In this document: one piece after another, positions 1 through 15,286 of the stretch
Position numbering within the stretch: position 1 is the stretch's first letter
Layout of the letters: every line of letters starts with the position of its first letter
Source of the DNA: Alphaproteobacteria bacterium
GTDB lineage: Bacteria; Pseudomonadota; Alphaproteobacteria; SP197
Assembly: GCA_965242595.1 (NCBI GenBank)
Contig: OZ251464.1
Coordinates: 1,982,235-2,046,234, forward strand
DNA: 64,000 nucleotides
Direction of reading: 5' to 3'
Translations under genes and position numbers: made by a program
The notes under the pieces: generated by a model
What the model was told of the DNA's origin: nothing
The model's input: the letters and a program-made list of their open reading frames with translations, nothing else
The model's database searches: none

Positions 1-3000
1 GATGGTGGTCGCCGCCCCCGACGGGCGCGACAGGGTAGCGCGGACAGTCGCCGCCCCGCCGCTCTCCGAGATCGCCGCCGGCGACAGCGCCAGCGTCACC
101 CCCGGCGCATCGTCGTTGTCGGTGGTGGTCACAGACACATCCACGTCGGCGATGCCGTTGTAGTCGGAGCCGCTGGCGCTGGAAGTATCCAGGCGCACAT
201 CCCAGGTGACGGTGCCGTCGTCGATATTGTCGTCCACCCCGGTCACCGTCACCACCTGATTGGTGTTCCAGTTGCCCGAACTCCCGGCCGTGAAGGTCAG
301 GGCGGAAGGCGATACCCGGCCCTCGCCGGCATCCTGGCTGGTCACCGTCACCGTCACCGCCTGCGAAGACATCGTGGCCTGGCCGGGATCCGTCGCCAGC
401 TTCACGGTGAAACTCGCCTGCCCGCGCCCCTCGCTCGCCTGGCCGGTCACCGTGCCCACATCCAGGCCCAGCTCGTCGTCGGCGTTGACGGCATAGATGA
501 ACACGTCGGAGAGCGCGTCGTAGAAGCTGTCGGCCGTGTCGGCCGTGTTCACCGCCAGCGTCACCCGGTAGTTCTGGCTGCCGTCGGCCGTGCCGGGCGA
601 GGGATCGTTCACCCCGGTCAGCGTCACCGTCTGCGCCGTCTGCCAGTCGCTGGAGGTGAAGGTCAGCGACGACGGCGACGCCGTGCCCTCGCCCGTGTTC
701 GAGCTGGTGACATCGATCACCACATTCGCGGTCGGCCCGGTGGCCAGGGTGATGTCCACCGTGGCCGTGCTGCCATCCTCCGAGGTTCGCAGCCGCGAAC
801 TGGTGCTGGTGGTCTCCGACATGACGATGGCCGCCTGGTCGTCGTCGCTGATGGTCAGGGACGCGCCGGTCACGCTGCCCACGCCGTGGCCGTTGGTCGC
901 CGCCGCCCCCACCGTCACCATGTTGTCTGTCGCATCCACCTGGTTGTTCACGGCCGTGATCGTCACCGTGCCGCTGGCGGTGGTGGCGCTGGCGGCGATC
1001 ACGATCCGCCCCGCCGCCCCCGCCGGCACCGTGAAGACCCCGCTCTGCGCCGTCACCGTCACCGTGGTCGGCTGGCTGGAAGGCCGCTCCAGAACCGCCG
1101 AGACCGCCGCCGCGCCGCCATTCTCGGTGATCGTGGCCGGCTGGACCGAAAGCGTCACCCCCGGCGCCGCATCGTCGTCCTCCAGCGTCAGCGTCGCCCC
1201 GGTCACGCTGCCCGCGCCCCGGTCGTTGGTCAGCGTCGCCGTCACCGTCGCCGTCCGGTTGGGTTCGTCGATATCGTTATCCACCGCCGTGATCGCCGCC
1301 GTGTCGCTGGCGGCGGCGGTGGCGAAGGCCGCGATCACGATGGTGGCGTCCGAACCCACCCGATAGGCCGCGCCCTGCGCCGCCATCACCGTCACCGTGG
1401 TCGCCACCGCCGAGGCCCGCGACAGGGTGGCGCTCACCGCCGACGTGCCACCGTTCTCGGAAATCGAGGCGGGAGAAAGCGCCAGCACCGCCCCCGGCGC
1501 CGCGTCGTCGTCGTTCAGCCTCAGCGTGGCGGCGGTGACGGCCATGGTGGTGGAATCGGCGCTGGCCCGGTCGTTCGTCACGATGGCCGTCACATTCGCC
1601 TGGCGACCGGGGCTGCCCTGGTGAACGTTGTCGTTCACCGCCGTGATCGTCACCGTCCCCGAGGCGTTCACCGTATCCCCAGCCGCGATCACGATCTGCC
1701 CCGCCGCCCCCGACGGCACCGTGAACGCCCCGGTCACGCCCGTCACCGTGATGGTGGTCGCCGCCCCCGACGGGCGCGACAGGGTGGCGCGCACCGTCGC
1801 CACCCCAGCGTTCTCCGAGATCGCCGCCGGCGTGAGCGCCAGCGTCACCCCCGGCGCCGCGTCATTGTCGGTGGTGGTTACAGGCACATCCACATTCGCC
1901 AGCGCGTTGTAGTTGGTATCGCCGCTGGCGGGGTCCAGCCGCACATTCCAGGTGACGGTGCCGTCGTCGATATTGTCGTCCTCCCCGGTCACCGTCACCG
2001 CCTGGGTCGTGCTCCAGTCGCCCGGCTGGAACGTCAGGGTGGAGGGCGAGACCCGGCCCTCGCTGGCATCCTGGCTGCTCACCGTCACCGTCACCGCCTG
2101 CGCCGGCTGGGTTCGCAGCCTCACGGTGAAGCTCGCCGTCCCACCCCCCTCGGTGGCCTGGCCGCTCACCGTGCCCGTCACCAGGCCGTATTCGTCGTCG
2201 TGGTTGACGGCATAGACGGTCGCGGTCGCAACCATGTCATAGGTGTCGTCGGCCGTGTTGGTCTGATCCACCTCCACCGTCACCTGGTAGTTCTGGCTGC
2301 CATCGGCAAGGGTATCGTCCTGGCCGGTCAGGGTCGCGGTCTGGGCCGTCTGCCAGTTGCTGGCCGTGAAGGTCAGCGACCCGGGCGAGACCGCCCCCTC
2401 GCTCGTGCCGGAGCCGGCCACGGCCAGGTCCAGCTCCACATCGCCGGTGGGCTGGCTGGTCAGCGCCACGGTGAAACTCGCCGTCCCGCCCCCCTCGTCG
2501 GTTTGCAGCCGCGCCGTGGTGGAGGGGGTGGGCGCCAGCGCCAGGCCGGCCGTGTCGTCGTCGGTGATGGTCACCTGCGGGTGGGCGGCGGCGTTCACCC
2601 GGTGGTCGTTGGTCTCCCCGATAAGCACGTACGGCGCGTTGGCCCCCGCGTCCACATCGTTGTCCAGCGCCGTGATCGTCACCCTGTCCGCGCTGGTGGT
2701 GGCGCCGGCCGCGATCACGATCCTCCCCCCCGCGCCCGTCGGCACCGTGAAGATGTTTTGCAGCCCCTGCACCGTCACCGTGGTCGCCGCGCTCGACTTG
2801 CCCGACAGCACCGCCGACGCCGTCGTCATCCCACCATTCTCGGAAATCGACGCAGACGACAGCGTCACCGTCACCGTCGGCGCCGCCTCGTCGTTCTCCA
2901 GCGTCAGCGTGACAGCGGTCGGGTTCGCCACATTGTTGCCGCCCGCCGCCGTGCCGGAGACCGTCACCTGCTTGTTGGGCGCATCCACATCGTTGTCGCT

Positions 3001-6000
3001 GGCCGTCACCGTCACATCCCCGCCGCTGACGGTGACACCGGCGGCGATGGTCAGCGTCCTGGCGGCGGAAAGGGCGAAGTCCGCCGCCACCGCGCCCGTT
3101 CCGGGCGCCGCCGCCACCGTCACCGTCACCGCTTCGCTGGAGGCGCCCGAAAGCGTGGCCGTCACCGACGCCACCCCGTTCGTCTCCGAGATCGACGCCG
3201 GCGACAGCGCCAGGGCCAGTGTCGGCAGCGCGTCGTCGTCGCTCAGCGTCAGCGTGACAGCGGTCGGGTTCGCCACCCCATTGCCGCCCACCACCGTGCC
3301 GGAGACCGTCACCGACTTGTCCGGCGCATCCACCATGTTGTCGTTGGCCGTCACCGTCACCGCGCCGGCGCTGGTGGTGCTGCCGGCGGCGATGGTCAGC
3401 GTCTTGGCGGTGGAAAGGTCGAAATCGGCCGCCGCCGCCCCCGTCCCAGGCGCCGCATCCACCGTCACCGTCACCGCTTCGCTGGAGGCGCCCGAAAGCG
3501 TGGCCGTCACCGTCGCCACCCCGCCGTTTTCCGAGACCGCGCTGGCCGACAGCGCCAGGGCCACGGTCGGCAGCGCGTCGTCGTCGGTGAGCGTCAGGGC
3601 GACATCCGACGGGTTCGAAAGCAGGCCGTGGCCGCCCGCCACACTGGCGGAGATCGTCACCTGCTTGTCCGGCGAGTCCACCATGTTGCCATTGGCCGTC
3701 ACCGTCACCACGCCGCTGCTGGTGGTGGCGCCGGCGGCGATGGTCAGCGTCTTGGCCATGGAGAGCGTGAAATCGGCCGCCGACGCGCCGGTCCCGGGCG
3801 CTGCCGCCACCGTCGCCACCACCGCCTCGTCCGATTTGCCCGAAAGCGTGGCCGTCACCGTCGCCACCCCGCCGCTCTCCGAGATCGCCGCCGGCGCGCG
3901 GGCCAGTGTCAGTGTCGGGGTGGGGTCGTCGTCGTTCTTGGTGACATCCACCGTCTCGTCGTCCAGGCCGTTGTACTTGCCGTCGCTACTGGCCGGGTCC
4001 AGGGTAATCTCCACCGCCAGACTCGCCGGATCGTCCCGGTCGTCGTCCACCGCCGTCACCCGCAGCGTCTGGGTGGCGTTCCAGTCGCTGGCGCTGAACA
4101 CCAGCGTCTTCGCGGTCGCGAAGGCTTGCGCATTGGCGTCGCCGGCCGCCCTGGCCAGCCGCACCTCGTCGCCATCGCCGCTGGTCGCCGTCACCGTCAC
4201 CGCCGCCGTCGGCTTGCTGGTCAGCCTCACCGTGAAGGTCTGCTCCGCTCCGCCCTCCGTCACCGTCAGCGTGCTCTCGGAGACCGTCAGCCCGGCCACA
4301 TCCACATCGGTGGTGCGCACCGTCTGCGGGCGCACGCTGGCCCCGCCAATCACATGATAGGCATCTGTGGGCTCATCCGGCGTGTCCGGGAACAGGCGCA
4401 GTGTGTAGTCGTCGTCGCCATCCACCACCTGGTCGCTCACGCCGTGCAGCGTCACGGTCTGCGCCGTCTCCCAGTTGCTGGCGGTGAAGGTCAGCCGCGT
4501 CGATGCCGCCGCCGTCCCGCCCCCCGCAGACACCAGCCCCTCATCCGACTCGTCGCTTTTCACCGCCACCGTGATGTTGGTGGTGGGCTGGCTGTTCAGC
4601 TTCACGGTGAAGGTCTCGCTGGCCCCTTCGGCCACGCTCAGCCACACCGGACAGGGCGCCCGGCGGCAGCGCGGAAAGGCCGGGGCCGTCACCAGGGCGG
4701 CGCGGTCGTCCTCCCAGATCCGCAGTTCCACATCGGCCGGGGCGGCGATGGTCAGCGTACTGCTGGGGGCGCCCTTCACCACCACCTTCTTGCGGGTCAC
4801 TGTGTCGTCCACGAGGGAGTCGATACGGTCGTCCACGGCCGTAATCGTCACCACGCCGGTGCTGGCGGTGGCGCCAGCCGCAATGATCAGCTTGGTGTTG
4901 GCGGAAAAGCTGAAATCGTCCGCCGCCGCGTTGGTTCCCGCCGTCGCCGAGACGGCGATCGTCACCGCCGCGCTGGCCGGGGTGCTCAGCCGCGCCGTCA
5001 CCGTGGTCATGCGCTCGGAACCCGGCGCCGTGGCCAGCTCCTTGATGGCGTCCGCCTCGCCCGAGATCGGGTCCGACAGCGCCAGCGTCAGCGTCGCCGT
5101 GTCGTCGTCCTCCAGCGTCAGCGTCAGCGACGATGGCGTCCCCACGTTGTTGCCGCCCGTCACCATGCCGGAGACCGTCACCGACTTGTCAGGCGAATGG
5201 ACGTTGTTGCCATTGGCGGTCACCGTCACCGTGCCGGCGCTGGCGGTGGCGCCGGCGGCGATGGTGAGCTTCGTGTTGCTGGAAAGGTCGAAATCGGCCG
5301 CCGCCGCGTTGGCCCCGGGCGCCGCCCCCACCGTCACCGTCACCGCCTCGCTCGACTTGCCCGAAAGCGTCGCCGTCACCGTCGCCACCCCGCTGCTCTC
5401 CGAGATCGACGAAGACGACAGCGCCAGCGTCACCGTCGGCAGGCTTTCGTCGTCGGTCAGCGTCAGGGTGAGATTGGACGGCGCCGCTATGTTGTTGCCG
5501 CCCACCGCGGTGCCGGAAATCGTCACCGACTTGGGCCCCGAATGGCGGTCGTTGCTATTGGCCGTCACCGTCACCGTGCCGGCGCTGGCGGTGGTGCCGG
5601 CGGCGATGGTCAGCGTCTTGGCGCTGGAAAGGTCGAAATCGGCCGCCACCGCCCCGGTTCCGGCCGCCGCCCCCACCGTCACCGTCACCCCTTCGCTCGA
5701 CTTGCCCGAAAGCGTCGCCGTCACCGTCGCCACCCCGCCGGTCTCCGAGATCGAGGAGGACGACAAGGCCAGCGTCACCGTCGGCAAGGTTTCGTCGTCG
5801 CTCAGCGTCAGGGTGACATCCGATGGCGCCACCACCCCGTTGCCGCCCGTCACCGTGCCGGAGACCGTCACCGACTTGTCCCCCGAATGGACGTCGTTGC
5901 CGCTGGCCGTCACCGTCACCGTGCCGGCGCTGGTGGTCTGCCCGACGGCGATGGTCAGCGTCTTGGCGGCGGAAAGGCCGAAATCCGCCGCCACCGCCCC

Positions 6001-9000
6001 GGTCCCAGCCACCGCCCCCACCGTCACCGTCACCGCCTCGCTCGACTTGCCCGAAAGCGTCGCCGTCACCGTCGCCTCGCCGCCCTGCTCCGAGATCGAG
6101 CTCTCCGACAGCGCCAGCGTCACGATGGGCAGGGTTTCGTCGTCGGTCAGCGTCAGGGTGAGATTGGAAGGCGCCACCACCCCGTTGCCGCCCGTCACCG
6201 TGCCGGAGACCGTCACCGACTTGTCAGGCGAGTCCACATCGTTGCCATTGGCCGTCACCGTCACCACGCCGGCGCTGGCGGTGCTGCCGGCGGCGATGGT
6301 CAGCGTGGTTCCCGTCTGGGCGAAGTCCGCCGCCACCGCCCCGGTCCCGGCCGCCGCCCCCACCGTCACCGTCACCGCTTCGCTGGAGGCGCCCGAAAGC
6401 GTGGCCGTCACCGACGACACCCCGCCGGTCTCCGAAATCGAGCTTTGCGACAGCGCCAGGGTCACCGTCGGCAGGGTTTCGTCGTCGGTCAGGGTCAGGG
6501 TCGCCGTGGTGACGGCCATGGTGGTGGAATCGGCGCTGGCCTGGTCGTTCGCCACCGTCGCCGTCACCGTCGCCTGGCGACCGGAGCTGCCCTGATGCAC
6601 GCTGTCGTTCACCGCCATGACGGTCACCGTGTCGCTGGCGGCGGTGGTGTCGCCGGCGTCGATCACGATCTGCCCCGCCGCCCCCGACGGCACCGTGAAG
6701 GCCCCGGAAACCGCCGTCACCGTCACCGTGGTGGCCGCGCTGGAGGGATGCGAGAGCGTCGCCGAGACCACCGAGCTGCCGCCGTTCTCGGCAATCGAGT
6801 CATCCGACAGCGCCAGCGTCACCCCCGGCGCCGCCTCGTCGTCGCTGATGGTCAGCGTGACGTCGTCCGGATCCGACGCGCCATCGCCGCCATCTACGGT
6901 GGCGGAGACCGTCACCTCCTTATCCGGCGCGTCGGCGGTGTTGTTCATCGCCGTCAATGTCACCACGCCGGTGCTGGTGGTGGCAGCGGCGGCGATGGTG
7001 AGCAGGGTTCCCGCCTGGGTGAAATCGGTCCCCGCCCCGGGCGAAGCCGAAACCGTGACGGTGGTCCCTTCGTTGGCCGCCTTGTCCAGCGTCGCCGTCA
7101 CCGTCGCCACCCCGCCGTCCTCCGAGATCGAGCTCTCCGACAGCGCCAGCGTCACCGCCGGCTTGTCGTCGTCTATGACCGTCACCGTCACCCCGATGGG
7201 GCGCTGCGCATGGGCCACGTTCCGCCCCACATCGCCGAGTCCGTAGTCGGCCACGACGTATCTGAGGCGCAGGGTGTTGTCCTCGTGGCCGGAGTCCGCG
7301 AGGGCATTCACGGTCACCGTCTGGGGCGTGTCCCAGGTCGTGGTCGTGAAGGTGTAGTTTTGCCCCCTCATGGGGGATAGTTGATTGTCGCCCCCCAGCG
7401 CGAGGCCGATGTCGGGGTAGAGGCCGACGCTGACCCACTGCGCCAGCCCAGGAGGCGGTTCGGTGTCCAGGACAAAGGTGAACGTCTTGCTGGCGCCCTC
7501 CTCGGTCAGGGTCATGGTGGTGGGGTTGAAGGTCACGCCTGCCGTGTCGTCGTCGGTCAGCGTCAGGTCCACCGTGGCTGGCGCCGCCACCCCATGGCCG
7601 CCCGCCATGGTGGCGGAGATCGTCACCTGCTTGTCGTTCGTATCCACCAAATTGCCATTGGCCGTCACCGTCACCGTGCCGGCGCTGGCGGTCTGCCCGG
7701 CCGCGATAGTCAGCGTCTTGGCGCTGGAGAGGGTGAAATCGCCCGCCACCGCCCCGGTCCCGGCCGCCGCCCCCACCGTCGCCACCACCGCCGCGCTCGA
7801 TTTGCCCGAAAGCGTCGCCGTCACCGTCGCCACCCCGCCAGTCTCCGAGATCGACGAGGACGACAGCGCCAGCGTCACGGTGGGCAGGGTTTCGTCGTCG
7901 CTCAGCGTCAGCGTGACATCCGACGGCGCCGCCACCCCGTTGCCGCCCGTCGCCGTGCCGGAGACCGTCACCGATTTGTCCGGCGCATCCACATCGTTGC
8001 CATTGGCCATCACCGTCACATCGCCGCTGCTGGCGGTGCTGCCAGCGGCGATGGTCAGCGTCGTGGCGGCGGAGAGGTCAAAGTCGCCCGCCACCGCCCC
8101 GGTCCCGGCCGCCGCCCCCACCGTCACCACCACCGCTTCGCTCGACTTGCCCGAAAGCGTCGCCGTCACCGACGAAACCCCGCCGGTCTCCGAAATCGAC
8201 GCCGGCGACAACGCCAGGGCCACCGTCGGCAGCGTGTCGTCTTCCGTAATGGTCAGGGTGACATTCGCCGGGTTCCCCACGCCGTGGCCGCCCGCCACCG
8301 TGCCGGAGACCGTCACCGACTTGTTCGCCGCGTGGACATCGTTGTCTTCGGCCGTCACCGTCACATCGCCGCTGCTGGCGGTGGCATTGGCGGCGATGGT
8401 GAGCGTGTTCTCCATGGAGAGCGTGAAGTCGTCCGCCCCCGCCCCGGCCCCGGCCGCCGCCCCCACCGTCACCACCACCTCCGCGCTCGATGCGCCCGAA
8501 AGCGTGGCCGTCACCGACGCCACCCCGCCGTTTTCCGCAATCGACGCCGGCGCCAGCGCCAGCGTCACCATGGGCGCCGTCTCGTCGTCGGTGAGCGTCA
8601 GCGCCGCGCCGGTCACGGCCATGGTCTCCGAGTTGGCGGCTGCCTGGTCGTTGGCCGCCGTGCCCGTCACCGTGGTGGCGCGCCCGGCGCCGTCAGCGCC
8701 GCCCTGATACACGCTGTCGTCCACCGCCGCCACGGTCGCCGTGTCGCCAGCGTTCACGGTATCGCCAGCGGCGATGACGATCACAGCGTCCGAACCCACC
8801 GTATAGGCCCCGTCCACCGCCGTCACCGTCACCGTGGTATCCGCGCTGGAGGGATGGGAGAGCGCCGCCGCTACCGTGGTCTCGCCGCCGTTCTCGCCGA
8901 TCGAGGCTGCCGACAGGCTCAGCGTCACACCCGGGGCATCGTCGTCGTCGGTCAGCGTCAATGCGACCCCGGTCGGGGCCGCCACGCCATTGCCGCCGCT

Positions 9001-11430
9001 GGCCGTGGCGGCAACCGTCACCTGCTTGTCGGGCGCATCGCCGTCGTTGTCCTCGGCCGTCAGCGTCACGCCGTCGCCGCCGCTGGCGGTGGCCCCGGCG
9101 GCGATGGTCAGCGTCCCCCCGCCGGAAAGGGTGAAATCGTCCGCCGCCGTCACCGTCACCACCACCGCCTCGCTGGAGGCGCCCGACAGCTTCGCCGTCA
9201 CCGTCGTCATCTCGCCATTTTCCGAAATCGAAGCCGACGACAGCGCCAGCGTCACGACCGGCAGCGCGTCGTCGTCGGTGAGCGTCAGCGTCACCGCCGC
9301 CGGCGCCCTCACATCGCCGCTCGCCTCCCCCGCAACCAGCATCCGCTTGTCCGGCGAGTCGATGCTGTTGCCCACCGCCGTAATCGTCACCGTGCCGGTG
9401 CTGGCGGTGGCCCCGCTGGCGAACACCAGCTCCGTCGTCGCCGACAGCGTGGCATCGCCCACCATGGCCCCCGCCCCGGGCGTCACCGTCACCGTAACGG
9501 TGGCCGCCCCGGCGGCCGCCTCGTCCAGCGTCGCCGTCACCGTCGTCACGCCGCCGGTCTCGGAGATGGTGGAGGACGACAGCGCCAGCGCCGCCTTGGG
9601 CACGGCGGTGATGGGGAGCCACTCGCCGTAGTAGTAATAAGTTGTTATGCCGTCGGGGAAGAGGCCGCCATGCGTGACGAGGACGACCACGCCGTCATTG
9701 TCGATCATCGCCTGGGTAAGACGGATCGTCCTGGACCCGCCGCTGCCGGTGGCCCGGCTGCAAATGGCGCCCTCGGTCGGCGCGGGGCCGCGATTTGAGG
9801 CGAGTCGCCTGACCGTCCTGTAAGCGCACGCCCAGACCCATCGATCCCCCAAGCTCCTCCCGGTAACGGTGATCGTTTGCGGGTCGGTCTTGCCCTTCAG
9901 CGACGCCGTGGTGACGTCATAGGTACCGAGCCCCGTTACCCAGCGCCTGTCGGTCCCGGTGGGCACGGTGCCGTCATTGTCGGTGACGGTCAGCGTCACG
10001 CTGGCCGGGTTCGCCACCCCGCCGCCGGCCGCGCTGCCCGACACCGTCACCTGCTTGGCGGCCCCGCGCATATCGTTGTTGACGCCCGTCACCGTCACCG
10101 TGCCGCTGCTGGCGGTCGCCCCGGCGGCGATGGTCAGCGTCCGCGTCAGAGACAATGTGAAGTCCCGCGCCGTCGCCCCGGTGCTGGGCGCCGCCGCCAC
10201 CGTCACCGTCACCGCCGCGCTGGAGGCGCCCGAAAGCCGCGCCGTCACCGTCGCCACCCCGCCGCCCTCCGAGATCGACGAGGGGGACAGCCCCAGCGTC
10301 ACCATCGGCGTGCCTTCGTCGTCGATCAGCGTCAGCGTGGTGGCTTCGGGCGCCCGGATGTCGCCAGCAACGCTGCCCGAAATCGTCACCTGCGCGTTGG
10401 GCGCGTCGGCGCTGTCGTCCATGGCGGTGATGGTGACTGTGCCGCTGCTGGCGGTGGCGCCGTTCGCGAACACCAGCCTCGTATTGCCAGAGAGCGTGAA
10501 ATCCGTGCCCGCGCCGGGGCTGGCCGCCACCGTGACGGTCGCCGCCCCGGAGGCCGGCTTGTCCAGCACCGCCGTCACCGTGGCCACCCCGCCATTTTCC
10601 CGGATCGACGAAGACGACAGGATCAGCGTCGCCTCCGGCAGCGAGACGATGGGCACCCATTCGGCGTAGAGATAGAAATGTCTGCCCGACGACTCCTCCA
10701 ACACCACAATGACCACGCCGTCATTGTCGATCATCGCCTGGGTCAGCGTGATCGAGTTGGGCGTGTTGTTGGTGGTAAGCTGGGTGCAGCCCGCGCCCGG
10801 TCCGGTGTTGGTGTAACCCTGGGTTGGCTGCGTGGCGTCTCTGGTGGCGCAGGCCCAGAAATCGACGAGGCGCTCCCTACCCCCTCGCGTCCTCACCGCC
10901 AGTGGCTGGGCGGTGGTCTTGGCCAGCAGCGGTGACGTGGTGATGTCCCAGTCGTTGGCTGTAGGGGCGCCGTTTCGCCACGTGGTCGCGGTGACCGACG
11001 GCTCGTTGTCGGCGATGGTCAGCGTCACGTCGGCCGGGCCGGTCAGGCTGCCGCCGCCGCCCGCGGCGCTGCCCGCCACCCTCACCATCTTGTCGGGCGC
11101 GTCGATGTCGTTGTTGACCGCCGTAATCGTCACCGTGCCGGCGCTGGCGGTGGTGTTGGCGGCGATGGTGAGCGTGGTGCCCGTCAGCGTGTAATCCGCC
11201 GCCCGGGCGCCGCTGGAGGCGACCGGCGCCACGCTGACCGTCACCGTCACCGCCGCGCTGTTCGGCGTGTTCAGACTGGCCGTCACCGAGGCCACCCCGC
11301 CACCCTCCGATATCGAAGCCGGCGACAGGCGCAAGCTCACACTCTGCGCCCAGGCCGGCGCCGCGGCGGCAAGCGCCAGCGCAGCCAGCAGGACGGCGAA
11401 ACCCACGCGGGAAGCGCGACAACCCCTCAC
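1..11430 (-). CDS. Giant Calx-beta-like repeat adhesin, paralog 2. This is the 5' partial, about 3800 codons; the gene continues past the window start.
   Basis: Reverse translation of 1..132 gives VTTTDNDDAPGVTLALSPAAISESGGAATVRATLSRPSGAATTI, the same repeat type as the large ORF. The frame stays open from the window edge up to a GTG at 11428-11430 that follows an in-frame TAG. The N-terminus reads VRGCRASRVGFAVLLAALALAAAAPAWA/QS, a signal peptide with an AWA cleavage motif. A GGGGGA Shine-Dalgarno-like motif sits ~5 nt upstream. It is absent from the ORF track because no stop lies within the window. Confidence 0.8.
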   Translation of the reverse strand, partial: MRGCRASRVGFAVLLAALALAAAAPAWAQSVSLRLSPASISEGGGVASVTASLNTPNSAAVTVTVSVAPVASSGARAADYTLTGTTLTIAANTTASAGTVTITAVNNDIDAPDKMVRVAGSAAGGGGSLTGPADVTLTIADNEPSVTATTWRNGAPTANDWDITTSPLLAKTTAQPLAVRTRGGRERLVDFWACATRDATQPTQGYTNTGPGAGCTQLTTNNTPNSITLTQAMIDNDGVVIVVLEESSGRHFYLYAEWVPIVSLPEATLILSSSSIRENGGVATVTAVLDKPASGAATVTVAASPGAGTDFTLSGNTRLVFANGATASSGTVTITAMDDSADAPNAQVTISGSVAGDIRAPEATTLTLIDDEGTPMVTLGLSPSSISEGGGVATVTARLSGASSAAVTVTVAAAPSTGATARDFTLSLTRTLTIAAGATASSGTVTVTGVNNDMRGAAKQVTVSGSAAGGGVANPASVTLTVTDNDGTVPTGTDRRWVTGLGTYDVTTASLKGKTDPQTITVTGRSLGDRWVWACAYRTVRRLASNRGPAPTEGAICSRATGSGGSRTIRLTQAMIDNDGVVVLVTHGGLFPDGITTYYYYGEWLPITAVPKAALALSSSTISETGGVTTVTATLDEAAAGAATVTVTVTPGAGAMVGDATLSATTELVFASGATASTGTVTITAVGNSIDSPDKRMLVAGEASGDVRAPAAVTLTLTDDDALPVVTLALSSASISENGEMTTVTAKLSGASSEAVVVTVTAADDFTLSGGGTLTIAAGATASGGDGVTLTAEDNDGDAPDKQVTVAATASGGNGVAAPTGVALTLTDDDDAPGVTLSLSAASIGENGGETTVAAALSHPSSADTTVTVTAVDGAYTVGSDAVIVIAAGDTVNAGDTATVAAVDDSVYQGGADGAGRATTVTGTAANDQAAANSETMAVTGAALTLTDDETAPMVTLALAPASIAENGGVASVTATLSGASSAEVVVTVGAAAGAGAGADDFTLSMENTLTIAANATASSGDVTVTAEDNDVHAANKSVTVSGTVAGGHGVGNPANVTLTITEDDTLPTVALALSPASISETGGVSSVTATLSGKSSEAVVVTVGAAAGTGAVAGDFDLSAATTLTIAAGSTASSGDVTVMANGNDVDAPDKSVTVSGTATGGNGVAAPSDVTLTLSDDETLPTVTLALSSSSISETGGVATVTATLSGKSSAAVVATVGAAAGTGAVAGDFTLSSAKTLTIAAGQTASAGTVTVTANGNLVDTNDKQVTISATMAGGHGVAAPATVDLTLTDDDTAGVTFNPTTMTLTEEGASKTFTFVLDTEPPPGLAQWVSVGLYPDIGLALGGDNQLSPMRGQNYTFTTTTWDTPQTVTVNALADSGHEDNTLRLRYVVADYGLGDVGRNVAHAQRPIGVTVTVIDDDKPAVTLALSESSISEDGGVATVTATLDKAANEGTTVTVSASPGAGTDFTQAGTLLTIAAAATTSTGVVTLTAMNNTADAPDKEVTVSATVDGGDGASDPDDVTLTISDDEAAPGVTLALSDDSIAENGGSSVVSATLSHPSSAATTVTVTAVSGAFTVPSGAAGQIVIDAGDTTAASDTVTVMAVNDSVHQGSSGRQATVTATVANDQASADSTTMAVTTATLTLTDDETLPTVTLALSQSSISETGGVSSVTATLSGASSEAVTVTVGAAAGTGAVAADFAQTGTTLTIAAGSTASAGVVTVTANGNDVDSPDKSVTVSGTVTGGNGVVAPSNLTLTLTDDETLPIVTLALSESSISEQGGEATVTATLSGKSSEAVTVTVGAVAGTGAVAADFGLSAAKTLTIAVGQTTSAGTVTVTASGNDVHSGDKSVTVSGTVTGGNGVVAPSDVTLTLSDDETLPTVTLALSSSSISETGGVATVTATLSGKSSEGVTVTVGAAAGTGAVAADFDLSSAKTLTIAAGTTASAGTVTVTANSNDRHSGPKSVTISGTAVGGNNIAAPSNLTLTLTDDESLPTVTLALSSSSISESSGVATVTATLSGKSSEAVTVTVGAAPGANAAAADFDLSSNTKLTIAAGATASAGTVTVTANGNNVHSPDKSVTVSGMVTGGNNVGTPSSLTLTLEDDDTATLTLALSDPISGEADAIKELATAPGSERMTTVTARLSTPASAAVTIAVSATAGTNAAADDFSFSANTKLIIAAGATASTGVVTITAVDDRIDSLVDDTVTRKKVVVKGAPSSTLTIAAPADVELRIWEDDRAALVTAPAFPRCRRAPCPVWLSVAEGASETFTVKLNSQPTTNITVAVKSDESDEGLVSAGGGTAAASTRLTFTASNWETAQTVTLHGVSDQVVDGDDDYTLRLFPDTPDEPTDAYHVIGGASVRPQTVRTTDVDVAGLTVSESTLTVTEGGAEQTFTVRLTSKPTAAVTVTATSGDGDEVRLARAAGDANAQAFATAKTLVFSASDWNATQTLRVTAVDDDRDDPASLAVEITLDPASSDGKYNGLDDETVDVTKNDDDPTPTLTLARAPAAISESGGVATVTATLSGKSDEAVVATVAAAPGTGASAADFTLSMAKTLTIAAGATTSSGVVTVTANGNMVDSPDKQVTISASVAGGHGLLSNPSDVALTLTDDDALPTVALALSASAVSENGGVATVTATLSGASSEAVTVTVDAAPGTGAAAADFDLSTAKTLTIAAGSTTSAGAVTVTANDNMVDAPDKSVTVSGTVVGGNGVANPTAVTLTLSDDDALPTLALALSPASISETNGVASVTATLSGASSEAVTVTVAAAPGTGAVAADFALSAARTLTIAAGVTVSGGDVTVTASDNDVDAPNKQVTVSGTAAGGNNVANPTAVTLTLENDEAAPTVTVTLSSASISENGGMTTASAVLSGKSSAATTVTVQGLQNIFTVPTGAGGRIVIAAGATTSADRVTITALDNDVDAGANAPYVLIGETNDHRVNAAAHPQVTITDDDTAGLALAPTPSTTARLQTDEGGGTASFTVALTSQPTGDVELDLAVAGSGTSEGAVSPGSLTFTASNWQTAQTATLTGQDDTLADGSQNYQVTVEVDQTNTADDTYDMVATATVYAVNHDDEYGLVTGTVSGQATEGGGTASFTVRLRTQPAQAVTVTVSSQDASEGRVSPSTLTFQPGDWSTTQAVTVTGEDDNIDDGTVTWNVRLDPASGDTNYNALANVDVPVTTTDNDAAPGVTLALTPAAISENAGVATVRATLSRPSGAATTITVTGVTGAFTVPSGAAGQIVIAAGDTVNASGTVTITAVNDNVHQGSPGRQANVTAIVTNDRASADSTTMAVTAATLRLNDDDAAPGAVLALSPASISENGGTSAVSATLSRASAVATTVTVMAAQGAAYRVGSDATIVIAAFATAAASDTAAITAVDNDIDEPNRTATVTATLTNDRGAGSVTGATLTLEDDDAAPGVTLSVQPATITENGGAAAVSAVLERPSSQPTTVTVTAQSGVFTVPAGAAGRIVIAASATTASGTVTITAVNNQVDATDNMVTVGAAATNGHGVGSVTGASLTISDDDQAAIVMSETTSTSSRLRTSEDGSTATVDITLATGPTANVVIDVTSSNTGEGTASPSSLTFTSSDWQTAQTVTLTGVNDPSPGTADGSQNYRVTLAVNTADTADSFYDALSDVFIYAVNADDELGLDVGTVTGQASEGRGQASFTVKLATDPGQATMSSQAVTVTVTSQDAGEGRVSPSALTFTAGSSGNWNTNQVVTVTGVDDNIDDGTVTWDVRLDTSSASGSDYNGIADVDVSVTTTDNDDAPGVTLALSPAAISESGGAATVRATLSRPSGAATTI
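260..4900. repeat. Multi-kb block of gene 2 homologous (roughly 85-95% nt) and largely collinear with gene 1 segment 20150..26500
   Basis: Antisense ORFs are near-identical at a constant offset of 19,897 bp: 1397..1624 vs 21294..21521, 1628..1912 vs 21525..21809, and 1913..2215 vs 21810..22112. The offset shifts by ~1.7 kb further on (4475 vs 26100). Confidence 0.7.
9620..9965 (-). other. Insert module copy in gene 2 (second)
   Basis: Verified reverse translations: VTLTVTDNDGTVPTGTDRRWVTGLGTYDVTTAS... and ...GSRTIRLTQAMIDNDGVVVLVTHGGLFPDGITTYYYGEWLPITAV. Confidence 0.55.
10640..10975 (-). other. Insert module copy in gene 2 (N-proximal)
   Basis: Verified reverse translations: VTLTIADNEPSVTATTWRNGAPTANDWDITTSP... 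and ...QAMIDNDGVVIVVLEESSGRHFYLYAEWVP. Confidence 0.55.
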
Positions 11431-11482
11431 TCGGTCCCCCTCGACAGGCGAGCGCAGCTATCTGGCAAGCCCCCATCAAGAA

Positions 11483-11808: not shown

Positions 11809-12546
11809 CTAAGCCACGACAGGGGCGGTCGCTGCCGGAACGGACGGCCCCTCGACAGCGATGCTGCGATCCGCCGCCATCGCAATATGCCGCGCCACGC
11901 GCTCGTCCAGGACGCTCTCCTGGGTATCGAGTTCAAGCGCGAAACGAATCAGCAGCCGTCTGTACAGGTCGAAATCGCGCTCTTGCCGCGCTGCGGCCAA
12001 TTGCCGAATGGCAAGATCGTCGCGCCGCAGCGGCCCGCATACGCGCATGAGGTGAAGGGCGGCGTTGCCCCGCTCCGAGAGGCGGCTTCCCCGCTGGATG
12101 GCGTCTTCCAATGCCTCGTCGAACGCCGTTCGCCCCGCCTCGGTCCATCGCGCCTTGAGGGCCGTGTAAAGGGCCGGCGTCGCCACCCCCAGCCAGCACC
12201 CGGTGTCATCGAGGGGCGCAAGGGATATGCCCGAATCGCCCAGCGCGCCCCCCACAACCTCGGCAGCCCGCGCAAGTTCCGCCCCCATGGCGACCACCCC
12301 TTCGCCGGAGACGATCGGCCGCGCGGATGCCGGCGGCAGCAGGGTGCCAAGCACCGCCGCTTCGTCCGGATCGGCGACCTCCAGCGCCCCGGGGTCGTCG
12401 CGCCAGTCGAGGCTGTGCGCAAGATAGAGCGCGGGATCGCCTGCGAATGAAAGCAAGGGTGGGCAAAAATGCATCCAGTCGCCAACATGGGCGGCGGACA
12501 TGCTAAAAAACCCCCGCAGGGTTGCGGCTGCGCGCGTGTCAACCAT
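11809..12546 (-). CDS. Hypothetical protein (245 aa). Its start overlaps the stop of the upstream ORF by 8 nt.
   Basis: ORF with mixed amino-acid composition (W, H, F, Y, C), unlike the low-complexity antisense frames. It is in the same orientation as its neighbours and translationally coupled to 12539..13315. I recognise no family. Confidence 0.5.
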   Translation of the reverse strand: MVDTRAAATLRGFFSMSAAHVGDWMHFCPPLLSFAGDPALYLAHSLDWRDDPGALEVADPDEAAVLGTLLPPASARPIVSGEGVVAMGAELARAAEVVGGALGDSGISLAPLDDTGCWLGVATPALYTALKARWTEAGRTAFDEALEDAIQRGSRLSERGNAALHLMRVCGPLRRDDLAIRQLAAARQERDFDLYRRLLIRFALELDTQESVLDERVARHIAMAADRSIAVEGPSVPAATAPVVA

Positions 12547-13315
12547 GAGCGGCCTCCAGCACCATGGATTCCTCTACCGTCTGCACCACCGACCCGTCTT
12601 TCTCCGACACGATGACGTGATCGAAAACCCACCTGTAGATTCGCTGGCTTTCGCTGTCTGCCAACGGGTTGCGCCCGAGCCAATGGATATATTTGCCGCG
12701 ATTGTCTTCGCTCATGTGGATTGCCCGTAGCTCCAGGCGGCCGGTGATCGCGTCGTGCGGGATGCGGACTTCCCATGTCCAGGCCCGCGCGGTGTTCGGC
12801 TGTCCCCTGACGATGGTGAACCCGGTCTCCGGAGGCCGATTCCCGGGCCCGGGGGCGCGGCCCTCAATGTAGTCGCTGAGCGTGTCGTAGTGGGCGAGAA
12901 TATACCGTTCGAAAGCATCCTTCCAGTCGCGCAACGGCACATCCAGCGTCCGGAAGGCCGCTTGCCGCGCTGTCGTCCCGAGTGGTGGATCGGTGTGGAT
13001 CTTGCCCGCCCACCAGCCGCCGCTGTCGAACGGCGTGGCCCCCCTCGCATCCGCAGGCCAGGCAACGCCTTCGGCCTCGCTCAAGACAAATACGATCCAG
13101 CCATAGCTGTCCTCCGCCCGCAGGACGTAGAAGTAGTAGGGCTTGCCGAGGATGCCAAGCCCATGCTCGGCCGCCAGGGTTTGCGGGCGGGCAGCGGGCG
13201 CAGGCCACTTTCCCTGGATGGCTGCGGTCACCAATTCGCGCCAATCCTCGCCACCATGAAGGTGGTAGTTGTGCAGCCCTCGGGTCAGCAAACGGTTCAT
13301 GGCCCCATCATACAC
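12539..13315 (-). CDS. Hypothetical protein (258 aa)
   Basis: Complex, non-repetitive composition (YYFYVLRAEDSYGWIVFVLSE..., WTWEVRIPHD...). It sits 69 nt downstream of the protease gene stop. I recognise no family. Confidence 0.55.
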   Translation of the reverse strand: MYDGAMNRLLTRGLHNYHLHGGEDWRELVTAAIQGKWPAPAARPQTLAAEHGLGILGKPYYFYVLRAEDSYGWIVFVLSEAEGVAWPADARGATPFDSGGWWAGKIHTDPPLGTTARQAAFRTLDVPLRDWKDAFERYILAHYDTLSDYIEGRAPGPGNRPPETGFTIVRGQPNTARAWTWEVRIPHDAITGRLELRAIHMSEDNRGKYIHWLGRNPLADSESQRIYRWVFDHVIVSEKDGSVVQTVEESMVLEAAHG

Positions 13316-13384: not shown

Positions 13385-14041
13385 TCAGGGCTTGGGTTCC
13401 GGCCGTAATGGCGGGCAGCTGTCCGCGCCATCCGCCTGGCGTTTCTGGCGCTGGCGATAGTATTCGACCAGTCGGTACGGGTCGTGGCCGACGGAGCGCG
13501 AAATCCGGTGGCGAACCTCGCGCACGGCGGCGATGACGGGATCGTCTCTCATGGCGATGCCACCTCTCCGGGAAGCTGCGACTTCACGCGCCATGGCGCC
13601 GCCGCGGCGCCAGAGAGTAGCCCGTTTCAGCTTGATCAGGGGGCGGTCGGGCGACTCCGGGCGCGGCCCCAGCGCGCGGGTGGCGCTATCCGCCACCAGG
13701 TCCAGCGCCGTCAGCACGATCTGGCCGATCAGCGGCTCGCTCAAGGGCGGGCCGACGATGCACTCGGTGATCATGAAGCGGTTGCCGATGTGAACCGTCA
13801 CCGGCCCGGCCACCGGGCGGGTTTCCTTGCGTTGGTCCGCATAGGTCACGACGACCTCGCGCTGCTTCCTCAGACCCAGGCGGCTGACCACGTTCTCCGG
13901 CAACACGAGCATGACCGCGCCGGTATCCACCACGCCTAGCACCGTCATGCGGCGAAGCTCGGATTCGGGGCGCAAACCCCGGCGGACGATGCAGCGGTCG
14001 CCGGTGTTTTCTAATTCCACCGAAGCGACGATCTCACCCAT
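13385..14041 (-). CDS. Retropepsin-like (clan AA, DTGA motif) aspartyl protease with a ~80-aa C-terminal extension
   Basis: Reads MGEIVASVELENTGDRCIVRRGL...LGVVDTGAVMLVLPENVVSRLGL...IGNRFMITECIVGP, with the catalytic D-T-G-A signature and the overall pattern of the PF13650/PF13975 type. There is a strong SD (GAGGAGGAAG) 8 nt upstream of the ATG at 14041; the ORF track extends it to a GTG at 14089. The C-terminal tail (MRDDPVIAAVREVRHRISRSVGHDPYRLVEYYRQRQKRQ) is unassigned. Confidence 0.6.
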   Translation of the reverse strand: MGEIVASVELENTGDRCIVRRGLRPESELRRMTVLGVVDTGAVMLVLPENVVSRLGLRKQREVVVTYADQRKETRPVAGPVTVHIGNRFMITECIVGPPLSEPLIGQIVLTALDLVADSATRALGPRPESPDRPLIKLKRATLWRRGGAMAREVAASRRGGIAMRDDPVIAAVREVRHRISRSVGHDPYRLVEYYRQRQKRQADGADSCPPLRPEPKP

Positions 14042-14061
14042 CGGCTTCCTCCTCACCGGCA

Positions 14062-14190
14062 TCCTGTCGCAACCGGAGCACCATGCCACAGGCGCCGCCG
14101 GGCGGGTGTCGGGTGGGTGTCACGGGGGTGTCGTGGACATGTTGCAGGGCGGCCGCGGCAGGCGGCGCGGGGCGGCGGGGGCCTGCCCAG
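14062..14190. repeat. Intergenic element R, copy 1. It lies between hicB and the protease gene.
   Basis: ~100-bp core is shared with 14627..14758 and 15151..15245. It contains GTGTC-type repeats phased at exactly 11 bp (14106, 14117, 14128, 14139). Its gene-proximal end reads GGTTGCGACAGGAT on minus. Confidence 0.7.
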
Positions 14191-14208
14191 GCCGTGTCCG
14201 GGCGCCGG

Positions 14209-14415
14209 TTAGACGGTGGCCGGTTCGGGCAGCGCCCCATCCTCATTGCGGACGATCTCCAGCCACTCGTCCACGATCCGGCACAGCTCGCGATACACCG
14301 CCACTTCGTCGTCGCCATGACAGCACGGGCCGATGACCCCGGGACAGGAACCGACAAAACACCGGTCCTCGTCCGACCATGCGACTCGCTTGATGTATTT
14401 CGCGCTGTCCTTCAT
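14209..14415 (-). CDS. hicB: HicB-family antitoxin, short form without a DNA-binding domain (68 aa)
   Basis: Reads MKDSAKYIKRVAWSDEDRCFVGSCPGVIGPCCHGDDEVAVYRELCRIVDEWLEIVRNEDGALPEP, matching the HicB-like antitoxin pattern (Y..v.WseEDg.yva..P.lpGc...GdT.eEA.......I.ewLE). It has a 4-nt ATGA overlap with hicA and a GAGGAG SD inside the hicA 3' end. Confidence 0.75.
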   Translation of the reverse strand: MKDSAKYIKRVAWSDEDRCFVGSCPGVIGPCCHGDDEVAVYRELCRIVDEWLEIVRNEDGALPEPATV

Positions 14416-14606
14416 GTCTGCGACTCCTCTATCCTTCGCCGCACCTCTCGTTCCTGGTAGGGCTTGGCATCGCCACCCAGGCTTCCGGAAATCGTCACAC
14501 GCTGCCCGTTCGGGTGGCGATAATTTCTGTGGCTGCCCTTGCCGCCGCGCGAAACGAACCCCGCCCGCTCCAGGTCTCTCACCAACGCTGCGACTTTACG
14601 CGGCAT
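14412..14606 (-). CDS. hicA: HicA-family mRNA interferase toxin (64 aa)
   Basis: Reads MPRKVAALVRDLERAGFVSRGGKGSHRNYRHPNGQRVTISGSLGGDAKPYQEREVRRRI. It has the G-KGSH-x-y-HP signature of HicA/YcfA-like proteins and sits directly upstream of hicB with overlap. Confidence 0.8.
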   Translation of the reverse strand: MPRKVAALVRDLERAGFVSRGGKGSHRNYRHPNGQRVTISGSLGGDAKPYQEREVRRRIEESQT

Positions 14607-14626
14607 GGTGTCGAGGCCGACATGGC

Positions 14627-14758
14627 CAACATTCTATCGCAACCGGGGCGCCATGGTCACAGGCGCTGCCGGGAGGGTGTCGGGCAGGTGTCACGGGCGT
14701 GTCGTGGGCGTGTTGCAGGGCGGCCGCGGCAGACAGCGCGGGGTGGCGGGGGCCGGGT
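14627..14758. repeat. Intergenic element R, copy 2, immediately upstream (minus sense) of hicA
   Basis: Four GTGTC/GTGTT repeats at 14677, 14688, 14699 and 14710 with exact 11-bp phasing. A TTGCGATAGAAT (-10-like TAGAAT) lies 25 nt before the hicA ATG on minus. Confidence 0.7.
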
Positions 14759-14762
14759 GGAA

Positions 14763-15044
14763 TTATCCCGAAGCTCGTTGAACTTCAGCCGCCCCGCCAT
14801 GCCGTGGCCCGCGCTGCCCAACCATCCCGGAGCACGCCAGGCCCGCGGTCGGTTCGGGCAGCGCCCCATCCTCATCGCGGAGGATCTCCAGCCACTCGTC
14901 CACGATCCGGCACAACTCCCGATACACCGCCACTTCGTCGTCGCCGTGACAGCACGGGCCGATGACGCCGGGGCAGGAACCGACGAAGCACCGATCCTCG
15001 TCCGACCACGCGACTCGCTTGATGTATTTCGCGCTGTCCTTCAT
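14763..15044 (-). CDS. Second, orphan HicB-like copy (hicB') with a 26-aa C-terminal extension and no hicA partner
   Basis: MKDSAKYIKRVAWSDEDRCFVGSCPGVIGPCCHGDDEVAVYRELCRIVDEWLEILRDEDGALPEPTAGL... is ~93% nt identical to hicB over ~250 bp. It has an intact ATG (15044) and a GAGGAG SD. The ORF track extends it to 15083 through the tandem repeat. Confidence 0.5.
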   Translation of the reverse strand: MKDSAKYIKRVAWSDEDRCFVGSCPGVIGPCCHGDDEVAVYRELCRIVDEWLEILRDEDGALPEPTAGLACSGMVGQRGPRHGGAAEVQRASG

Positions 15045-15057
15045 GTCCGCGACTCCT

Positions 15058-15130
15058 CTATCCTCCGCCGCGCCGCTCTCCATCCCTCGCCGCGCCGCTC
15101 TCTATCCTTCATCCTTCGCCGCGCCGCTCA
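15058..15130. repeat. Imperfect 22-bp tandem triplication replacing hicA upstream of hicB'
   Basis: Units are ctatcctccgccgcgccgctctc / catccctcgccgcgccgctctc / tatccttcatccttcgccgcgccgctcattcc. They correspond to the 3' end of hicA (RRRIEE codons and the hicB SD) present once at 14416..14440. Confidence 0.7.
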
Positions 15131-15150
15131 TTCCTGGCACAGTTGGCACC

Positions 15151-15245
15151 CTATCGCAACCGGGCCACCACCACAATAGGCGCTATCGGGAGGGTGCCGC
15201 AAGGGTGTCGTGAACATGTTGCGCGGCCGCCGCCCGACACCCGCC
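15151..15245. repeat. Intergenic element R, copy 3, partial and diverged. It lies between the giant gene 1 stop and hicB'.
   Basis: Starts ctatcgcaaccgg like copies 1 and 2. It retains three 11-bp-phased GTG(C/T)C repeats at 15194, 15205 and 15216. Confidence 0.55.
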
Positions 15246-15286
15246 CGACACCCCTGCGGCACCCACCCGACAGGCGGCGCGGGCGC

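Follow-up and report, generated by a model that had tools for sequence, protein, structure and literature searches.

A bacterial retropepsin-like protease gene probably joined by accident to an orphaned partner of a PIN-domain gene

Among described retropepsins, the best structural matches of the protease considered here are HIV-1 protease (HIV-1 PR; MEROPS A2) and APRc of Rickettsia (PDB 5c9f; PMC4140852). RimB and RloA of Pseudomonas are small bacterial homodimeric aspartic proteases with a DTGA motif (PMC11957791, PMC12239564), the alanine after DTG being a hallmark of retropepsins (PMC12239564). RimB is cytoplasmic, whereas RloA is secreted and is classed in Pfam as a zinc protease, in another family than PF13650 (PMC12239564); both are encoded in conserved operons (rimABK and rlo). 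PF13650 (Asp_protease_2) and TIGR03698, for their part, comprise uncharacterised prokaryotic retropepsin-like proteins. Here we analyse a further member of the PF13650 family, encoded as the first part of a 218-codon open reading frame (ORF) in a 64,000-nucleotide (nt) stretch of DNA from an Alphaproteobacteria bacterium (assembly GCA_965242595.1, contig OZ251464.1, positions 1,982,235 to 2,046,234; hereafter the window). We think it probable that this ORF is an accidental chimera, in which a normal member of the retropepsin-like family is read through into an orphaned gene whose usual partner encodes a PIN domain.

Like RimB and RloA, the window protease is small, bacterial and of the DTGA type, but its family has no conserved neighbours comparable to the rimABK and rlo operons. 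It is only 14–20% identical to HIV-1 PR and APRc, does not form part of a polyprotein, carries an extra N-terminal strand and helix (residues 5–20) and extends by 20 residues at the C-terminus; when the sequence is read by eye, the hydrophobic N-terminal membrane segment of APRc has no obvious counterpart in it. By profile, residues 1–139 belong among the PF13650/TIGR03698 proteins, and the tail that follows them in the window is absent from every member we saw except one (P0002, described below). The tail in turn belongs to a family that recalls VapBC modules, being a small protein coupled by an ATGA overlap to a PIN-domain gene. In contrast to canonical VapBC, these putative modules are ordered toxin-first, as in reverse-order modules such as HicAB; no recognisable DNA-binding domain was found in the tail family, and no profile family exists for it. 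In the window, the PIN gene is gone.

The protease domain and where its family ends

The frame had been listed as running up to a GTG at 14089. Homologues of the protease all begin MGEIV, however, which corresponds to the ATG at 14041, and we therefore take that ATG as the start. The Shine–Dalgarno site noted in a preliminary description of this DNA can be read directly as GAGGAGG, 6 nt ahead of this ATG (Table 1), and the same stretch is common to other protease loci, with homology beginning near 14060. The source annotation treats the 218-codon ORF as one protein, and NCBI/ENA list the identical 218-amino-acid (aa) protein (P0001), from a contig of 2.82 Mb.

Profile, predicted fold and motif agree that the first 139 residues are a retropepsin-like DTGA aspartic protease, as the preliminary description had proposed. 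PF13650 matches residues 34–107 with 29.8 bits, above its cut-off of 24.3, while PF13975 just misses (27.7 against 28.2). TIGR03698 (clan_AA_DTGF) scores 42.2 against a cut-off of 57.35 and TIGR02281 (clan_AA_DTGA) 16.2 against 57.95, the latter far below; the protease is related to both of these families and, by the NCBI criterion, a member of neither. An AlphaFold2 model built on 47 sequences has a pLDDT of 92–99 for residues 1–140 and predicts a single-lobe retropepsin fold for residues 1–139. When it was compared with the PDB by Foldseek, the top 50 matches consisted of HIV-1 proteases (target-normalised TM 0.64–0.72, probability 1.0) and APRc (5c9f; probability 1.0). Sequence searches of the PDB with profiles of the protease part and of the tail gave no match. 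The active-site motif quoted in the preliminary description, LGVVDTGAVMLVLP, forms residues 35–48; D39 is nearly invariant in two alignments of homologues (A1 and A7), and the hydrophobic-hydrophobic-Gly motif L104-I105-G106 is invariant in A1. Given the profile and fold matches, the D-T-G is not an incidental tripeptide.

By analogy with what has been reported for retropepsins (PMC12239564, PMC4140852), the domain would be catalytic, and it would have to dimerise with itself, two D39 residues then supplying the catalytic pair. No signal peptide or hydrophobic N-terminal segment is apparent by eye, and we take the protein to be cytoplasmic. In the protease part, DTGA and every conserved motif are retained, as is a strong ribosome-binding site; the ratio of non-synonymous to synonymous substitution rates (dN/dS) between it and 13 close homologues is 0.2–0.46, against a family median of 0.30.

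The family ends where the tail begins. A word-indexed search found 1,357 relatives and an exhaustive HMMER scan of 1.84 billion cluster representatives found 1,465. The best 120 of the 1,357 are nearly all 139 aa long, cover 64% of the query and end in ...PLLKLK, and the few longer relatives carry unrelated tails that look like low-complexity read-through. The canonical stop is gone in about one-tenth of close homologues, which run on for a few to about 80 residues. At the DNA level, homology to 80 other protease loci covers only 14060..13626 of the window. The preliminary description had presented the tail, as part of the protease, in terms that would allow a C-terminal domain of the family. 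Such a domain is not what the family has: the best 150 of the 1,465 HMMER matches align with the query from residue 1 to no further than about residue 165, and no tail lies downstream in about 80 genomic protease loci. The separate small gene that corresponds to the tail was likewise not found by tblastn within 4 kb of 79 genomic protease loci, and a DNA profile of that gene (nhmmer) matched at protease loci only in three contigs (L002, L003 and L106; loci and proteins other than those of the window are given by L and P numbers). The flank of one further locus, L001, looked vaguely like a decayed remnant of the small ORF by eye; nhmmer found nothing there, and we discarded this candidate.

A mosaic linker and an orphaned tail

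The tail comprises 79 residues after K139, the point at which homologues stop, in agreement with the earlier estimate of about 80; the stretch that had been quoted from it forms residues 164–202. Its last 55 residues find 23 stand-alone homologues of 57–94 aa, all of which start at the same methionine (MRDDPVI...), and the 18 invariant positions of this small-protein family are all retained in the window. The tail is thus, as had been suspected, a separate small helical unit fused in frame, which homologues place in an ORF of its own: members of its family are nearly always free-standing genes of about 60 codons. Searches of Pfam, NCBIfam, PADLOC, PHROG and the PDB sequences gave nothing for this family. 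AlphaFold2 predicts a two-helix hairpin (helices 5–21 and 25–45; pLDDT 71), for which Foldseek returned CopG, ParD and VapB Rv0300, of the ribbon-helix-helix type, only at E >3, which is noise level. The model of the full-length protein was built from protease homologues and P0002 only, and the placement of the tail relative to the protease domain in it is therefore unreliable; a joint MAFFT alignment put the small proteins on the protease N-terminus.

The usual company of the small gene is quite different from a protease. Directly upstream of it, in 17 of the 28 loci inspected (those with PIN not all being independent), lies a 160-aa gene or its remnant, overlapping the start of the small gene by ATGA. 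The product of this gene is a PIN-domain protein (PF01850; 25.1 bits, cut-off 23.6). Upstream of PIN, the inspected loci L089 and L107 have no further small gene, which leaves the small protein as the sole candidate partner of PIN. Judging from gene order, that is, from translational coupling and the lack of another partner, the small protein in its native setting is most likely the antitoxin of a PIN toxin in a toxin-first module. The combination of a 160-aa PIN gene (starting M..VYIETTIPSFY) with an MRDDP/MKDDP small gene forms an unannotated toxin-first, toxin–antitoxin-like pair. It is intact in L085–L089, L101 and L107 and disrupted in L004, L092–L096, L103 and L109/L110; roughly half of the loci have a frameshift or truncation in PIN next to an intact small gene. 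In the window, tblastn with one PIN query found no PIN gene anywhere in the 64 kb, about 23 nt of a PIN 3' end being left, and so the tail is an orphan. Elsewhere, a copy of the small gene is flanked by a McrB-like AAA gene and by McrC, whose start it overlaps (L108, 2501–2689), and in the related locus L107 the PIN/small-gene pair is followed by a truncated McrC.

Protease and small gene are joined by 24 codons that are a mosaic of three pieces, and this, together with the PIN gene being the usual partner, again counts against a tail that belongs to the protease family. The first piece is the native 3' flank of the protease gene, read through. Codon 140 (13624..13622), which is TGA in most homologues, is CGG in the window and TGG in L111, a syntenic 24-kb metagenome scaffold with 85–88% DNA identity to the window that carries the same genes unfused. 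Codon 144 (13612..13610) is TGG in the window and TGA in L111 (alignment of 13640..13596 with L111 6402–6447), where the protease ends ...LKLKWASA*, stopping four codons past codon 140. Two stops have therefore been lost by substitution. The second piece, CCATGGCGCGTGAAGTCGCAGC, shares 20 of its 22 bases with 14608..14587, where the intact hicA gene begins; the 64 kb hold only two matches to it, against 0 expected by chance. The third, CTTCCCGGAGAGGTGGCATCGCC, agrees at 21 of 23 bases with the last codons of the PIN gene that is intact in L107 (2022–2504; ...LLGEVAPS* in its own frame), and blastn homology to L004 begins 25 nt ahead of the small-gene ATG. This PIN-derived piece supplies a ribosome-binding site, GGAGAGG (13569..13563), 10 nt before the small-gene ATG at 13552.

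The gene order of L111 starts with a repeated element (rep), the protease with its stop, a hicA stump, about 0.8 kb including a 99-aa gene, and the orthologous small ORF (P0122); it continues with rep, hicA-hicB, a 46-codon protease stump and rep, and ends with homologues of the two genes that lie downstream of the window ORF (orf258 and orf245), a 193-aa gene and the start of a giant gene. The hicA stump behind the protease has 32 codons and stands in the same place as the shorter hicA fragment of the window. Window and scaffold differ by rearrangements, the key one being a deletion by which hicA codon 7 and the 3' end of PIN meet ahead of the small gene.

These observations suggest a history in which the fusion would have arisen by local rearrangement inside a small toxin–antitoxin islet between two giant adhesin genes. 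From a protease that normally ends ...LKLK, the stop at codon 140 would have been lost first, as in L111, and the second stop later, by a change from TGA to TGG at codon 144. A deletion may then have joined the hicA fragment behind the protease, cut after codon 7, to about eight last codons of PIN, so that the small partner downstream of PIN would have come into the reading frame of the protease. Translation that begins at the strong protease start is predicted to yield a 218-aa protein in which the protease is followed by 24 scrap residues and these by a two-helix hairpin. As the small gene keeps its own ribosome-binding site and ATG, its protein can probably be made by itself as well.

Chance joining weighed against pairing and decay

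That such a frame is open at all calls for little. At about 69% G+C, we estimate from base composition that a 24-codon linker would be open and in frame with a chance of about 0.2 once the stops are gone, and with a prior of that size the in-frame fusion needs no selective explanation. The fusion most likely has no dedicated function. The family-typical dN/dS of the protease and the invariant residues of the tail indicate that both halves are either still constrained or recently joined.

Some findings pull the other way. Besides the window, the protease and the small gene stand together in three contigs, and there the small gene follows the protease directly in a second, differently joined arrangement. 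In L106, the protease ends at an in-frame TGA and the small ORF follows, unfused, after 45 nt; L002 and L003 have the same arrangement with TGA changed to GGA, giving a fused protein of 208 aa (P0002), which is the sole other fusion found and which has DAG rather than DTG in its active-site motif. The junction in these three contigs consists of the native protease 3' flank and about 13 nt from upstream of the small ORF, and so differs from that of the window. The existence of two junctions, and of two fusions that are in frame, could be a hint that the pairing is under selection. Moreover, both halves of the window ORF look intact and constrained, and the antitoxin role of the small protein is read from gene order, its predicted fold having no significant structural match.

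The account that would make most of these points is a functional pairing, a kind of toxin swapping in which the protease is a toxin-like or otherwise harmful effector and the small protein has been taken over from a PIN module to inhibit or regulate it or to serve as its antitoxin; a fused copy would work in cis, for instance up to the moment at which it is cleaved off or degraded. It draws on the recurrence of protease followed by small ORF at two different junctions, at both of which the small ORF shares the frame of the protease stop or read-through, on the intactness of both parts in the window, and on the setting, a toxin–antitoxin islet with hicAB and a PIN remnant. The protease itself, multi-copy, found across phyla, without conserved neighbours and often with a degenerate motif, behaves as might be expected of a selfish or costly gene. 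Against this, out of more than 1,400 protease relatives only those on four contigs show the pairing, the small gene usually has PIN as its partner, the linker is scrap from three genes, and the other fused copy, P0002, has DAG instead of DTG. The great majority of protease members, furthermore, have no adjacent candidate antitoxin, which makes the protease unlikely to be a toxin that needs one. We therefore regard a functional pairing as unlikely; if it were true, it would be a first hint of a role for the uncharacterised cytoplasmic retropepsins.

A second alternative, to which we give little credence, is that the locus is decaying or artefactual: an error in the consensus of a metagenome-assembled genome (MAG), or a young pseudogene whose product is unmade or unstable. 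The exact 218-aa protein is known from a single contig, and the neighbouring cassettes are visibly decaying, with a hicA stump, a duplicated hicB and a PIN remnant in the window and, in related loci, with frameshifts in PIN genes and a protease copy that is truncated; DTG is gone from about 20%, and the canonical stop from roughly 10%, of close protease homologues. Yet the protease of the window retains its DTGA and conserved motifs, its strong ribosome-binding site and a dN/dS typical of the family. Its junction differs from those of relatives by several substitutions and a deletion rather than by one homopolymer-type error, and two separate samples gave identical assemblies of the analogous fusion P0002.

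The most far-reaching idea, that the whole protease family is a mobile toxin-like effector for which a few lineages captured the PIN antitoxin as an inhibitor, so that the window ORF and P0002 would be single-chain protease–antitoxin modules and represent a toxin–antitoxin type with an aspartic-protease toxin, we consider unlikely. In the library searched, no paper ties retropepsin-like proteases to toxin–antitoxin systems.

The islet, the wider protease family and their meaning

Table 1. Features of the ORF and its surroundings, in window coordinates
Feature	Positions	Strand	Basis or remark
218-codon ORF, probable chimera	13385..14041	minus	protease + 24-codon mosaic linker + small PIN-partner gene
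Retropepsin-like (clan AA) aspartic protease domain, residues 1–139	13625..14041	minus	PF13650 profile, AlphaFold2 fold, motif
Catalytic motif D39-T40-G41-A42	13916..13927	minus	codons GAT ACC GGC GCG; reverse complement read directly
Shine–Dalgarno GAGGAGG	14054..14048	minus	6 nt before protease ATG
Linker part 1, protease 3' flank read through	13597..13624	minus	blastn of 14055..13596 against L111 5987–6447, 87.9% identical
Linker part 2, 22-nt hicA 5' end	13575..13596	minus	gives MAREVAA (HicA: MPRKVAA)
Linker part 3, PIN 3' end (about 8 last codons, wrong frame)	13553..13575	minus	own frame ...LPGEVASP*
Small gene (tail), 55 codons + stop, MRDDPVIAAV...	13385..13552	minus	free-standing homologues
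hicA	14412..14606	minus	PF07927, 41.5 bits against cut-off 27
hicB-like gene	14209..14415	minus	PF21748, E = 0.037 only; overlaps hicA by 4 nt
Second hicB copy	about 14844..15044	minus	94% aa identity over 67 residues
rep copy A	14042–14208	minus	88% to copy B over 118 nt; before protease
rep copy B	14607–14762		upstream of hicA
rep copy C, partial	15084–15286		GACACCC motif cluster in both orientations
orf258 (258/253 aa)	12539..13315	minus	8-nt overlap with orf245
orf245 (245 aa)	11809..12546	minus	downstream of orf258

The ORF lies in a protease/toxin–antitoxin islet of 3.8 kb between two giant adhesin genes. One of these (15287–56146, minus strand) encodes 13,619 aa and contains repeats of the Calx-beta, He_PIG and LapA-domain types, with no Pfam match over the final 1,000 aa; the other (1–11457, minus strand) encodes at least 3,819 aa from a signal-peptide-like start and extends off the window. 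Upstream of the ORF, where hicAB had been placed in the preliminary description, there is indeed a hicA and a hicB-like gene, which by sequence appear to form a HicAB toxin–antitoxin pair, the hicB-like match being weak (E = 0.037). The second hicB copy (14763–15083, minus strand) has a divergent C-terminus and is preceded only by the last 12 codons of a hicA; it looks as though a hicA-hicB-rep unit was duplicated in tandem and hicA then lost.

The repeated element that the preliminary description had placed ahead of the ORF is there as well, copies A and B being joined by a third, partial one. It is about 120 nt long and fronts several unrelated cassettes; in L111 it recurs at 5887–5962, 7663–7706 and 8729–8766, preceding the protease, hicA and orf258. 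The pattern GACACCC-N4-GACACC at 11-nt spacing has seven matches in the window, all of them in rep copies, where 0.28 would be expected. The region has a single sigma-70-like match, which falls in copy B ahead of hicA (14660..14631; -35 GTGACC, -10 TAGAAT); the equivalent hexamers of copy A, GTGGCA and CAGGAT, are weaker and fall below the scan threshold. It is plausible that rep serves as a shared promoter/operator that would drive the protease from copy A, as had been supposed. An integron attC site had come to mind from a GTCTAAC core overlapping the hicB stop and from GCAAC/GTTGC conserved in all rep copies; single-stranded folds of the three copies gave z = 0.03, 0.49 and 0.06 against shuffles, without a long hairpin, and we rejected it.

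Downstream of the ORF lie two coupled genes of the kind that had been reported there, overlapping each other and without a Pfam, NCBIfam, PADLOC or PHROG match. The real start of orf258 is probably five codons inside the listed GTG, and 142 homologues of about 253 aa were found for it. The pair is present in L111 (8810–10553; 79% and 74% aa identity, the second gene being 328 aa there) and absent from 79 other protease loci. The two are syntenic neighbours, not conserved partners of the protease family. Nor did clustering of flanking ORFs reveal any conserved neighbour of the protease in 79 loci, where it returned only spurious high-GC antisense ORFs.

The protease gene itself is widespread. 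As a 139-aa gene it occurs in loci L005–L084, sharing 52–83% of its aa and as much as 85% of its nt with the window, on chromosomes of MAGs labelled Binatia, Nitrospirales, Alpha- and Gammaproteobacteria (Azotimanducaceae), Spirochaetia, Vicinamibacterales, Dehalococcoidia and Rhodothermales. It is often present in several copies per genome, as in L065, which has two, and L010, where two stand within 1 kb. Synonymous divergence (dS) between these relatives and the window is about 0.35–0.6, far below between-phylum divergence, which implies that the gene has spread horizontally. Two peptide patterns found no viral carriage in IMG/VR, and there was no PHROG match; the sole plasmid match was a distant one on a Synechocystis plasmid, with 29.5% identity and the annotation 'clan AA aspartic protease'. 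In one Alphaproteobacteria MAG (L001/L007), inverted repeats of about 120 nt (3667–3786 and 4559–4674; 77–93% complementary) flank the protease. We considered the protease as cargo between such repeats and dropped the idea, nothing comparable being present in seven other loci checked.

Decay is common in this family. The catalytic DTG is kept in 93 of the 120 closest homologues, the others having ETG, DAG, ATD or DTS or being unscorable. Replacement (by ETG, DAG, ATD, DTS or NTG) affects about one-fifth of close homologues, for example in L002, L006, L012, L014 and L016, and suggests either frequent inactivation or a non-catalytic role.

The locus carries a lesson for annotation, in that an apparent 'multidomain' protein consists of two unrelated genes welded together by loss of stop codons and a deletion, and its tail should not be propagated as a domain of bacterial retropepsins. 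What emerged alongside the fusion may be worth more than the fusion itself: a family of small proteins coupled to PIN-domain genes, a multi-copy 139-aa protease gene found at up to 85–88% nucleotide identity on MAG chromosomes of many phyla, and a repeated upstream element marked by GACACCC.

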